NCBI GenBank assembly: GCA_965215265.1
Contig: OZ244048.1
Coordinates: 3,264,001-3,328,000 of the forward strand
Direction: 5' to 3'
DNA length: 64,000 nucleotides
From: Candidatus Poribacteria bacterium
Lineage (GTDB): Bacteria; Poribacteria; WGA-4E; WGA-3G
Shown here: piece after piece, positions 7,417 through 22,221 of the stretch
Layout of the letters: every line of letters begins with the position of its first letter
How positions within the stretch are numbered: position 1 is the stretch's first letter
Translations under genes and position numbers: made by a program
The notes under the pieces: model-generated
Seen by the model: the letters and a program-made list of their open reading frames with translations, nothing else
Told to the model about the DNA's origin: nothing
Databases searched by the model: none

Positions 7417-7530
7417 GCAGCTGCTTTGACAATGACTATACAAATCTCGTCAGAGGTTTTTTGTAGGTTGGCGTACCATAAAGGCAGCTGCTTTGATAGC
7501 AACTATACAAATCTCGTCAGAGGCTTTTTA
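7417..7530. repeat. imperfect tandem duplication, period 67 bp
   Basis: gcagctgctttga..actatacaaatctcgtcagagg at 7417 and 7484; a partial third copy near 7609-7636. Confidence 0.8.
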
Positions 7531-18367: not shown

Positions 18368-19162
18368 ATGATGCTTCAACTAAATACTATCCATTGCGGG
18401 GACACGTTTGAATTACTAAACAGTTTGGAAGATGACTCAATAGATTTAATTGTCTGTGACGGTCCCTATGGTGTAACAGAGAAGGCATGGGATAAGATTC
18501 CGTCGATTCAAGAATTTAACCTAAACCTCATGAAGCGTTTTGCGCCGAAATTAAAACGGGGCGGCTCGTTGTATCTCTTTGGGAAACCTGATTGCATTGA
18601 CTTTATAGATTATCGGCAATTCTTAACGCTGCGTGCAAAGATTGTCTGGTATCAGCCAAGTAGACTCGCGCAAGGACGAATCAATTACACCAATAACTAC
18701 GACATTATCTGCTACTTCATTAAAGGCAAACGCCCAAGGTGCTATAATATTGATGCAATCCGAGTGGATCAACTTGCCGGGTTGACGCACCGGAGACGTT
18801 GCGAGAATGTGCCCTCTGTGGTGAACGGCAAGTTTGGCAAGACGAAATATAATCCGAACGGGAAGAACCCGGGCGATGTGTGGGGTGATATAAAACAGTT
18901 AACCTATAACTCGAAGGAGTTAGTAAGTCGGGAGGCTCTTAATACCATCCAAAAGCCGGAGCGGTTAATTGAACGGATTGTGTTAGCCAGTTCGTCACCG
19001 AGGGATCTGGTCTTGGATGCGTTTGCAGGGGTGGGGACGTGTGCTGTGGTGTGCAAGCGGCATCGGCGGGATTTTATCGGGTTTGAAATGGATCCGGACT
19101 TCGTAAAAATAGGCAATGAACGCCTGTTCTGCGGAGCTAACTCGCCAGAGCTATTTTTCTAA
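18368..19162 (+). CDS. orphan beta-class N6-A/N4-C DNA methyltransferase
   Basis: Motif IV DGPY precedes motif I (LDAFAGVGT); also QKPERL and GDVW. Confidence 0.88.
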   Translation: MMLQLNTIHCGDTFELLNSLEDDSIDLIVCDGPYGVTEKAWDKIPSIQEFNLNLMKRFAPKLKRGGSLYLFGKPDCIDFIDYRQFLTLRAKIVWYQPSRLAQGRINYTNNYDIICYFIKGKRPRCYNIDAIRVDQLAGLTHRRRCENVPSVVNGKFGKTKYNPNGKNPGDVWGDIKQLTYNSKELVSREALNTIQKPERLIERIVLASSSPRDLVLDAFAGVGTCAVVCKRHRRDFIGFEMDPDFVKIGNERLFCGANSPELFF

Positions 19163-19189
19163 ACAGATACAAAATTTGTAGTAAGAATT

Positions 19190-19218
19190 TTGACAAAAAC
19201 ATTAGCGCATGATAATCT
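19190..19218 (+). promoter_or_regulatory. sigma70 promoter facing the repeat-spacer units
   Basis: TTGACA(19190)-17 nt-TAATCT with TGn extension. Confidence 0.55.
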
Positions 19219-19302
19219 CTATGTTATAGAAGAAGAAGGTACAGGACTTGGAGGCTCAAGTTGCTTAACAGTGCATGATAATCTCTATGTTATAGAAGAA
19301 GA
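19207..19302. repeat. repeat(30)-spacer(36)-repeat(30) unit A
   Basis: gcatgataatctctatgttatagaagaaga is identical at 19207-19236 and 19273-19302. Confidence 0.9.
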
Positions 19303-19304
19303 GG

Positions 19305-19402
19305 GTTTTAACCAAACAGTGGTATTTCCACCAACTATTACTGTGATTAATGCCATAGTTTTTTTCAATAAGTTTTAACCAAACAGTGGTATTTCCACCA
19401 AC
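19305..19402. repeat. repeat(31)-spacer(36)-repeat(31) unit B, CRISPR-like repeat
   Basis: gttttaaccaaacagtggtatttccaccaac is identical at 19305-19335 and 19372-19402; GTT..AAC ends and an internal GTGG/CCAC hairpin. No cas genes in the window. Confidence 0.9.
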
Positions 19403-19500
19403 AAAGGCGTTAAATTCCGCACTGATAACGGACAAGTGAAAAATGAAAAACAAATTTCCCCGGCTTGCAGCGGCGGATAAGAGATGTGAAGAGGTAAATT

Positions 19501-22221
19501 ATGAAGCATCACACTGATGAATGCATCGTGCATGAACAGACATTTGAAATAATGAAAGACGTTAAGTTAGCAGTAATTGTGTTTATATTGACTGCAGCGT
19601 TCAATTTAAGTTCCTGGTGTGAAACGTTCACGTACCACTGGGAGATATCTGAGATGCCTTCAGGGGTTGAAACGGTCTCCGTTGTCCAACCGATACAGGT
19701 TGACATACTGGGGAATCTTATACAAGCGAGTTCGGACAGTGCAGCTTTGAAACTCGCAAATTACTACTCTGTCTACCTGTCGCAGCAATGGGAACCTAAT
19801 CAAGCGTACCTATTGCTTCAGATGCTGGAGGCTATACCGCAGCATCGAAATTATCTCGGCAATCCGGAGAGACAAAAAGATCTGAGTTTCTGGTTTATAA
19901 TTGACGGATATGTAGAGAACGATATTCGGTTCAGTGAAATAGGAGGTACGAGGTTTGTTACTATATCGTCTGAGGTGTTTAACTATGCTGATCAGAAGCT
20001 TGCTCGAATCGAAGGTGTGCGTGGGCGCTTCTTCTCCAAGCGACTCCATCACGCCGTCGTTCGGTACGTGACTGACAACGGGGCAGACCGATATGCTATC
20101 GAACGTATCCTACGGGATAGGTATGATGTGCGTGTGAGCGTGCCGGATTATCAGGAACTGACCCGCAACACAACGGGTGAACACGCCGGACGCTTTTCAG
20201 AGTTTAAGAATGAAGAGTTGATCGATATAGTGTCGATGCTGGAGGAATTTCCTTCGGGGATGCTCAAAACCCCGGGGCTGCAGTATCTGGTCCGTCGCCT
20301 GGATGGTACCCCACATCCGTTGCATCCTGAGGCGGGGGCAGTGGCTTGGCCCTCAGCGGGCTACATAGAGTTTATGGAAGGGGCTTTTAAAGGCGGGAGC
20401 CCGGACAGTATTCATCGGTTGATTCTGCATGAGAAAGCACATTTCTTATGGGCACATCTGTTCGATGACCAGCTCAAACAAGATTGGATAGAACTAGGCG
20501 GATGGTTTGAAACTCCAGACGATGGCGATGGGTGGGCTACCACGAAGCAGATTGAATTTGTTTCTGCTTACGCGCACGGGAAAAATCCGAACGAGGATAT
20601 GGCGGAGAGTATCAGTTTTTACATCGTGAATCCGGATAAACTCCGTTCTCGGTCTCCTGCGAAATATGAGTTTATCCAGAATAGAGTGATGCACGGCACG
20701 CGCTACATCTCACGGATACGTGAAGACCTCACTTTCCATGTCTATAACCTCTATCCGGATTATGTCTATCCCGGTAAGATTATACGGGTAGATATCACCG
20801 CGGACGGGGGGCCGGAGGAAGATAAACTGGTAACAGTCGAGATCGAAATTCATGGGGAAAGCGATTTAGATGCGGCACGTTCGCTCTATGTACGGATATT
20901 TAGTGAGGCAGGCACCTTTAACGATATCCGACTATATGCGATAGATGAGAACGGGCGGAACGTCCCAGAGGGGCATGTGTTCAGAGGACAGGAAGTCTTC
21001 TCTCGATATGCTAAAAGTGGGTACTGGGCTCCTGACCAGATTAGCTTTGAAGATGCACACGGTCATGAGAGACATCAGTCGGAGCGTGATTTCGGGTGGA
21101 AACTTTACATAGATAACCCGCTTGAAGATTTAGCCCCGCCTGAATATGTGAAGGACTCGATGGGTCTTGCCTTGTCTCAAGCGGTTACCTCTGATGGCAG
21201 ACCGTATCAGATCGTTACGGCGAGCTGGGAAGTGATAGAGGCCTCCGGTATAGCCAGAGTGAACGCTGCATTGAATGATAATTTTCAGGAGACATATTCG
21301 ACGCTGAACGAATTTGAATATGGCGGCTATGTGCCTGAATTAGGTAAGGTGGTGGTTAAGTTCAATCTACCTGACTATATGCCAAGCGGTATGTACGCGT
21401 TAAACAAAATAGGAATGTTGGATGTTGCGAGAAACTCTTCAAAAGTCTATTTCACTGCTGGTGGCAAGGATGAAGCACCGAAGACGATTCGGGTGGAAAC
21501 GTCACGTCCGGATCTGTCGCCTCCGGTTTTGGATATTAATCGGATAACGGTTCGCGCAGAACCGACTATACCTGAGGCACCTAACGGTGAGACTATCGTC
21601 GATATTAGTTTCTGGATTAAGGACAACATCAGCGGTTATGCCAAAAGTGGGATGTATTTACGGGATCCGCACGGTGTTATGCATCATTTTTGGCATTTGC
21701 CGCCCGGGCGTGGCAGCTTGTATTTCAACGGGGATCCGACAGTTTTTAAGGAATATCACCAACGGATAGTTCTACCCGTAGGTAGCACCCCCGGCACATG
21801 GGGCTTAGCCGAAATGACACTGTTCGATAAAGCGAGTAACATCCTGAAATTGGACTTTACCGAGATTGTTAGATTTGAGGTCGGTGATAATCCGGCCGCT
21901 CCGACATTGCTGCTGACGAGCATACCTGAAAGGACTCAACTCTTGACTAACTATCCGAATCCGTTTAATCCTGAGACATGGATCCCGTATCATTTATCTG
22001 AAGGCACAGATGTCAAAATCAGAATTTGCGATATTACGGGCTCGCTGGTACGCTTAATCGATGTAGGTTTCCAACCTGCGGGGTTCTATGAGTCAAGTAG
22101 CAGAGCAGCAAGGTGGGATGGGCGTAACGGTTTCGGTGAGCAGGCTGCGAACGGCATTTACTTCTATCAGCTAGATGCCGGCAGTCTATCCGATTTACGA
22201 AAAATGGTGATATTGAAATAG
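19501..22221 (+). CDS. secreted HEXXH zinc-metallopeptidase-like protein with a C-terminal FlgD-Ig/T9SS-like sorting domain
   Basis: LILHEKAH..EDMAES; C-terminus NYPNPFNPETWIPY..WDGRN..GIYFYQL..RKMVILK. The true start may be ATG19552. Confidence 0.75.
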   Translation: MKHHTDECIVHEQTFEIMKDVKLAVIVFILTAAFNLSSWCETFTYHWEISEMPSGVETVSVVQPIQVDILGNLIQASSDSAALKLANYYSVYLSQQWEPNQAYLLLQMLEAIPQHRNYLGNPERQKDLSFWFIIDGYVENDIRFSEIGGTRFVTISSEVFNYADQKLARIEGVRGRFFSKRLHHAVVRYVTDNGADRYAIERILRDRYDVRVSVPDYQELTRNTTGEHAGRFSEFKNEELIDIVSMLEEFPSGMLKTPGLQYLVRRLDGTPHPLHPEAGAVAWPSAGYIEFMEGAFKGGSPDSIHRLILHEKAHFLWAHLFDDQLKQDWIELGGWFETPDDGDGWATTKQIEFVSAYAHGKNPNEDMAESISFYIVNPDKLRSRSPAKYEFIQNRVMHGTRYISRIREDLTFHVYNLYPDYVYPGKIIRVDITADGGPEEDKLVTVEIEIHGESDLDAARSLYVRIFSEAGTFNDIRLYAIDENGRNVPEGHVFRGQEVFSRYAKSGYWAPDQISFEDAHGHERHQSERDFGWKLYIDNPLEDLAPPEYVKDSMGLALSQAVTSDGRPYQIVTASWEVIEASGIARVNAALNDNFQETYSTLNEFEYGGYVPELGKVVVKFNLPDYMPSGMYALNKIGMLDVARNSSKVYFTAGGKDEAPKTIRVETSRPDLSPPVLDINRITVRAEPTIPEAPNGETIVDISFWIKDNISGYAKSGMYLRDPHGVMHHFWHLPPGRGSLYFNGDPTVFKEYHQRIVLPVGSTPGTWGLAEMTLFDKASNILKLDFTEIVRFEVGDNPAAPTLLLTSIPERTQLLTNYPNPFNPETWIPYHLSEGTDVKIRICDITGSLVRLIDVGFQPAGFYESSSRAARWDGRNGFGEQAANGIYFYQLDAGSLSDLRKMVILK

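Follow-up and report, generated by a model that had tools for sequence, protein, structure and literature searches.

The locus lies in a window of 64,000 nucleotides, corresponding to bases 3264001-3328000 of a single 4,833,177-base contig, a Poribacteria chromosome; positions are those of the window unless given as genome positions. An N6/N4 DNA methylase gene (264 aa; 18368-19162, + strand) lies upstream and a gene for a 906-aa protein with a C-terminal secretion sorting domain (19501-22221, + strand) lies downstream. Between these genes, and presumably within the 5′ leader of the 906-aa protein gene, which would place them in its 5′ UTR, are two neighbouring repeat-insert-repeat units, A and B, that together span 19207-19402.

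Unit A (+ strand) consists of a 30 bp repeat (copy 1, 19207-19236, the left copy of the original target site), an insert or ‘spacer’ of 36 nt (19237-19272) and a second repeat copy (19273-19302) identical to the first at 30/30 positions. A GG dinucleotide (19303-19304) separates the units and forms with the start of B the junction GG|GTTT, a motif common to other sites described below. Unit B (+ strand) consists of a 31 bp repeat (copy 1, 19305-19335), an insert of 36 nt (19336-19371) and a second copy (19372-19402; 31/31 identical); the repeat measures 30 bp if its final C is assigned to the insert. Our analysis thus confirmed the two repeat-36 nt-repeat units reported in the initial annotation. 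The likeness between the two A copies extends to 37 nt with 2 mismatches (19204-19240 versus 19270-19306), and we took the additional 3-4 nt on each side of the 30 bp as chance. Chance cannot account for exact 30-mers 66 nt apart.

Neither repeat was recognised as a member of a known family, and neither recurred as an array. Repeats A and B had no third site in the 4,833,177-base genome at ≤3 mismatches, repeat B was absent from 175 further genomes of the phylum and had 0 exact matches in the genome_contigs collection, and an Rfam scan of 19100-19520 (E ≤10) returned chance-level matches only and no CRISPR family. Repeat B starts with GTT, ends with AAC and contains a 4-bp GUGG/CCAC hairpin. 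Both the ends and the hairpin had been pointed out before, but the fold (−4.6 kcal/mol, z −0.99) was no better than that of shuffled sequences, and we rejected the hairpin as evidence. The leader of ~200 nt that is common to array 1 and a mini-array (both described below) has no counterpart at the A/B locus, where only the TAGC| preceding A recalls leader ends.

A promoter-like block precedes and overlaps unit A (19190-19218, + strand). It comprises TTGACA (19190-19195), 17 nt and TAATCT (19213-19218), and this second hexamer falls inside A copy 1, in line with the proposal that repeat A duplicates the −10 region of a TTGACA promoter. A consensus promoter scan, on the other hand, did not call TTGACA...TAATCT, the second hexamer matching at 3/6 positions only. 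We retained the promoter-like block despite this result because it is conserved in 6/8 related loci. In these loci, which belong to other genera, the block TTGACAAAAAC.TTA..GCATGATA occurs once, 3′ of the methylase ortholog.

Together with the first half of A, the block is single-copy in the same proportion of related loci (6/8), so that the search for a single-copy state of A, which had been proposed, was successful at the distance of other genera. The same-genus genome G001 has a different, non-alignable sequence after the methylase gene and is uninformative on A. A 29-mer spanning promoter and A, used as a probe for an A-empty strain, had 0 matches in metagenome_contigs.

Resident CRISPR-Cas systems and the chromosomal footprint

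A k-mer scan of the genome located three large arrays. In array 1 (genome 524241-535578), 170 repeats of 30 nt alternate with spacers of 33-40 nt (mode 36); two pairs of its spacers are internal duplicates (59 = 61 and 159 = 163). Genes for Cas1b, Cas2, Cas4 and the type I-B effector as well as a type III-A module adjoin this array, and Cas1b scored 453 bits against a cut-off of 304, identifying a cognate adaptation module. The Csm2 gene of the type III-A module (L007:4192-4905, + strand) encodes a fusion protein of 237 aa in which a cold-shock (CspA-like) domain at the N terminus (49-111) precedes the Csm2 domain (153-234). In array 2 (genome 622351-624111), spacers of 35-39 nt separate 27 repeats of 30 nt. 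The repeats of arrays 1 and 2 differ, but the arrays have one spacer in common (36/37) and therefore seem to be supplied by one adaptation module; both leaders end in TAGC. Array 3, with 64 repeats of 36 nt, adjoins a type I-G Cas4/Cas1 fusion gene. This fusion and Cas1b are the only two Cas1 genes of the genome, and both are located outside the window, consistent with the earlier statement that the window contains no cas genes.

The lengths of units A and B agree with those of the type I-B arrays. The duplications (30 bp in A, 31 or 30 bp in B) equal the repeat length of 30 nt, and the inserts of 36 nt fall within the spacer-length distribution, at its mode. The comparison with the genome's true arrays that had been suggested for the two units thus gave a fit. 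For E. coli type I-E, the corresponding lengths are a 28-bp repeat and a 33-nt spacer.

The same footprint recurs across the chromosome. We scanned for near-exact repeats on every diagonal from 30 to 130 nt, leaving out the three arrays. Segments of 27-33 bp occurred 28 times at spacings of 65-68, versus 29 times over the 97 other spacings combined. Five of the 28 segments represent one mini-array, and the remaining 23 stand alone as solo units whose repeats are unrelated, at spacings of 67 (11 units), 66 (7), 65 (3) and 68 (2). All but two of the solo units (21/23) are intergenic, in a genome of which ~84% lies in ORFs of ≥150 aa. In five solo units the inserts match multi-copy repeats; these units are ambiguous and may be of other origin, which leaves ~18 clean units. 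No segments of 35-38 bp were found at spacings of 70-81, the geometry expected of the type I-G system, and we rejected the type I-G module as the source of the units.

The genome also contains long runs of diverged 66-nt (22-codon) tandem repeats, which had to be separated from the units (genome 1073660, 2498923, 2604197, 3456262, 4464716 and 4634008) that share motifs such as CGAGATATCCGACACT. These are probably genes for repeat proteins, whose 66-nt period is shared with CRISPR arrays by coincidence.

The mini-array (genome 4319418-4319777, reverse strand; L012:13419-13778) has six repeats of 29 nt and five spacers, and is preceded by ~200 nt, reaching to about genome 4320000, that are almost identical to the array 1 leader. 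Its 29-nt repeat was found as a single copy, with 2-3 mismatches, in 3/175 other genomes of the phylum, as the 5′ region of an HSDR_N-domain gene. In one of these (G161) the 29-nt sequence directly precedes the ortholog of this gene, and the surroundings are free of repeats. The mini-array has the appearance of an array that arose from non-repeat DNA next to a copy of a leader, and it supports the view that the integrase measures its target rather than reads it. The mini-array is one of five repeat-insert-repeat structures within 22 kb (genome 4311497-4333089), together with the solo units at 4311497, 4331532 and 4332992 and a three-repeat remnant with the array 1 repeat (4318527-4318687). This stretch may be a local hot region.

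Origin of the inserts and strain comparison

Both inserts were compared with the genome, and insert A also with viral and metagenomic contigs. A search of this kind had been proposed for both spacers and was successful for one of them. Insert B is an exact copy (36/36), in reverse complement, of genome 3581264-3581299, which is 298 kb away. The match increases to 37/37 when the ambiguous C of the repeat is included; this permits a reading of unit B as 30 bp duplicated and 37 nt inserted, in which the discrepancy between 31 and 30 bp disappears. The source comprises the ribosome-binding region and ATG of a sulfotransferase-family gene, and the plus strand of insert B is complementary to both. 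A homologue of this source is present in the same-genus genome G001. For insert A, we found no match elsewhere in the genome, none at ≤3 mismatches in the 175 other genomes of the phylum, and none for a 28-mer of the insert in viral_contigs or metagenome_contigs.

Four further solo inserts match single-copy places of the genome (36/36, 34/34 and 35/36), and one spacer of the mini-array matches its own genome at 36/37. By comparison, full-length self matches were absent from the canonical spacers (0/257), so that self-derived inserts are strongly enriched in solo units (5/23 versus 0/257; Fisher's test, P=2.4×10−6). Such a contrast would be expected if capture of self DNA were frequent and tolerated only in units that play no part in interference. 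In plus orientation, which need not be that of the units, a C is present at −1 in 5/5 self-derived sources, a sample too small to define a PAM. Canonical spacer ends, examined for a PAM, showed no bias.

Six sequencing runs from two studies, none of them an RNA run, contain the stretch, and we aligned X1 and X2 from one study and X3 and X6 from the other. X1 and X2 each yielded one contig (9,120 and 5,870 nt; depth 49 and 119) with ~15 differences over 1.4 kb, representing a strain that is ~99% identical. Both contigs run unbroken through unit A and then join 19304 to 19372. This junction skips 67 nt, and 31 nt fit on either side of it, as expected of a precise empty site of B. The allele with a single copy of B, a search for which had been proposed, is thus present in a sister strain. 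Evidence for an empty A site comes only from a distance, from the 6/8 loci of other genera. In X1 and X2, a C>A difference at 19217 affects A copy 1 only, and copy 2 is unchanged; this substitution changes the presumed −10 element from TAATCT to TAATAT.

In X3 and X6 one contig crosses unit A and matches it throughout. The short-read unitigs are interrupted at the B copies, and both junctions between repeat and insert of B are bridged by pieces of 59-60 nt with a depth like that of the flanks. Contigs from runs of two studies thus carry the units or their junctions, which disposes of the concern that the units might be an assembly artefact, although X3-X6 possibly derive from the sample behind the genome assembly, in which case their support would not be independent. 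In all four runs we detected the source locus of insert B, as loose ends. Unit A is present in both strains and unit B in one, so A is older than the divergence of the strains and B the younger of the two. We infer that B was gained in the lineage of this genome, a polarity that takes the empty B not to be a precise secondary loss by recombination between the 31-bp copies.

Target sites

The duplicated sequences resemble canonical repeats at their ends. With motifs that were chosen after viewing the data and with statistics that are accordingly post hoc, 8/23 duplications start with GTT or end with AAC, as canonical repeats do (background 3.6%, P=8.5×10−7), 9/23 have GG|GT or AC|CC at a boundary (background 0.58%), and AGC| directly adjoins 4/23 on the outside, A among them (P=0.003). 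AGC| resembles the TAGC| that closes the leaders of arrays 1 and 2 and of the mini-array.

At least six units lie in the 30-31-nt core of one intergenic repeat family of ~60 nt, and the units are therefore not independent. The family is characterized by the flanks CGAGATTT and AAATCTCG around a 30-31-nt core with GTTT...AAC-type ends, and it occurs genome-wide (for example at 1680511, 555347, 2322504, 4332992 and 3840775). Since at least six stray insertions duplicate exactly their core, these elements apparently serve the integrase as decoys. It is plausible that the A/B site is a hotspot, too: the TAGC| before A and the GG|GTTTT...CAAC in B may form one small hotspot, which would explain two events 2 bp apart.

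Proposed off-target integration and alternative explanations

We propose that both units are off-target spacer integrations (‘neo-CRISPR’ units) made by the genome's own type I-B adaptation module, A being the older and B a recent event. We base this reading on the geometry and the resident cas system, on the source found for insert B and the allele that lacks it, and on the single-copy A in related loci, and assign to it a probability of roughly 0.85. The integrase would be encoded by the Cas4-Cas1b-Cas2 genes next to the 170-repeat array and would be loaded with a captured fragment of ~36 nt. Staggered attacks ~30 bp apart would hit ordinary DNA and not the first CRISPR repeat, and gap repair would then duplicate the 30 bp on both sides of the insert. 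Unit A would have been created first and unit B later, 2 bp downstream, from a fragment of the cell's own chromosome. Anchors resembling repeat ends (TAGC| before A; GG|GTTT...AAC in B) probably make the site a hotspot. Most likely, both units are now inert, as scars in the 5′ leader of the gene downstream. The unknown short-insert integrase considered in the initial annotation is not needed, as the resident type I-B module fits the geometry.

Replication slippage and tandem duplication typically leave short direct repeats close together, and the breaks of short-read unitigs at the B copies might point to an assembly artefact. Slippage, however, duplicates contiguous sequence and cannot set an exact copy from 298 kb away between repeats, so the earlier preference for two fixed-length integration events over slippage was justified. 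An artefact is at odds with the contigs of two studies that carry unit A in one piece and with the 59-60-nt unitigs that bridge both B junctions at flank-like depth. We see practically no chance that either process produced the units. It is also highly improbable that true arrays, or mini-arrays of two other CRISPR types gained by horizontal transfer, decayed to a single spacer each and left these units as remnants. The CRISPR-like GTT...AAC ends and small hairpin of B would suit such an origin, and orphan or isolated arrays are common (proposed origins are listed in the introduction of PMC13142298). Yet repeat A is a local promoter region that is single-copy in 6/8 related loci, a sister strain carries exactly one copy of B and no insert, and B is absent from the 175 phylum genomes and lacks an Rfam CRISPR match. 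Moreover, ~20 more units each have their own repeat and exactly one insert, and insert B is the start of one of the cell's own genes.

Another process might add ~67 nt as a DNA copy plus a compensating duplication of the target, mediated by a non-Cas integrase or a repair pathway. Repeat and insert lengths do trade off against each other, from 27+40 to 33+32 with sums of 65-68, many inserts are the genome's own DNA, and one self-derived unit measures 32+34. Most of the trade-off is nevertheless boundary ambiguity: knowledge of the source gives lengths of 30+37 or 31+36 for B and for the unit at 4332992, and of 30+36 for that at 4458115. The periods fall within the distribution of the type I-B arrays, the duplicated sites favour canonical repeat ends, and the array beside the copy of the array 1 leader grew in the same way. 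For a 30+36 footprint no candidate enzyme other than Cas1 is known, and we consider such a process unlikely. Off-target integration could also have created units that are now functional, with a crRNA-like or antisense RNA expressed from the conserved promoter-like block. Insert B, which is antisense to the start of the sulfotransferase gene and complementary to its RBS and ATG, could then guide the type III-A (RNA-targeting) complex of this genome or act as a small regulatory RNA. The repeats of A and B share little with canonical repeats, which makes processing by Cas6 doubtful, and an antisense orientation has a chance of 1 in 2. The sister strain lives without unit B, and the enrichment of self-derived inserts in stray units and their absence from canonical arrays are as expected without use in interference. 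The chance of a present function is accordingly slim.

Off-target integration by the type I-B module, as we propose it here, resembles the neo-CRISPR loci formed by off-target activity of E. coli Cas1-Cas2 (Nivala, Shipman and Church 2018, as cited in 10.1101/148544 and PMC6698737). These loci also contain a spacer-length insert between repeat-length duplications of ordinary DNA outside an array, their sites weakly resemble leader or repeat ends, and new arrays can grow there. In contrast to our case, those events involved over-expressed type I-E Cas1-Cas2, whereas the events described here have the 30+36 geometry of a natural type I-B system. They comprise ~20 events fixed in one wild genome, two of them 2 bp apart, with an exact chromosomal source and a strain with an empty site. 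For two other species, the relevant passages of 10.1101/148544 mention only ‘circumstantial evidence’ and call the natural frequency unclear.

Compared with canonical type I-B acquisition, the units share the 30-bp duplication ruler, the insert length (33-40 nt, mode 36, in arrays 1 and 2) and the presence of the Cas4-Cas1b-Cas2 genes. Unlike canonical acquisition, the A/B site had no leader and no prior repeat; a promoter region (A) and unique intergenic DNA (B) were duplicated instead, and the stray inserts include self DNA, which was found in 0/257 canonical spacers. Orphan or isolated arrays, for which off-target acquisition is one of three proposed origins (attributed to Shmakov et al. 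2020 in the introduction of PMC13142298), are likewise repeat-spacer units far from cas genes. Such arrays mostly keep the repeat of a known system and several spacers, whereas each unit described here has a locally made repeat and one insert. Virus-borne mini-arrays (Medvedeva et al. 2019, PMC6858448) also have a single spacer between two repeats, which are identical or very similar to those of the host in the cases covered by the cited section of PMC8616872. Such mini-arrays are located on viruses, however, and units A and B have repeats unrelated to the host's and lie in ordinary chromosomal DNA, with the methylase gene on one side and the gene for the secreted protein on the other.

The kind of reaction is thus already known, and this natural case is unusually complete. 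Judging by the sources cited above, off-target integration has so far been shown mainly with over-expressed E. coli Cas1-Cas2, and here ~20 natural events occur beside a type I-B system. They provide a natural data set on the targets of a type I-B integrase, with GTT/AAC ends, GG|GT junctions and cores of a repeat family. The events also bear on the cost of adaptation, through the capture of self DNA and the survival of 21/23 events only between genes, and on the birth of new repeat families and arrays. It is doubtful that the genome is making new CRISPR repeat families with stray units such as A and B as raw material, the mini-array, 1 Mb away, as a grown example and unit B already yielding, from the conserved promoter-like block, an antisense RNA for use by the type III-A complex or by simple pairing. 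If it were, stray integrations would be a source of new regulators and new arrays, beyond scars.

For annotation, our findings are a warning that a lone repeat-spacer-repeat unit need not be an array. Two further structures of similar outline occur in the window. At 1837-1930, an exact 27-bp duplication surrounds an insert of 40 nt that matches ~10 other places in the genome, and this structure represents either a neo-CRISPR unit whose insert derives from a repeat or a section of a repeat family. At 7435-7529, a 28-bp duplication (1 mismatch) and its 39-nt insert both belong to the intergenic repeat family of ~60 nt (AAATCTCGTC... ends), and probably represent tandem elements rather than a spacer insertion.
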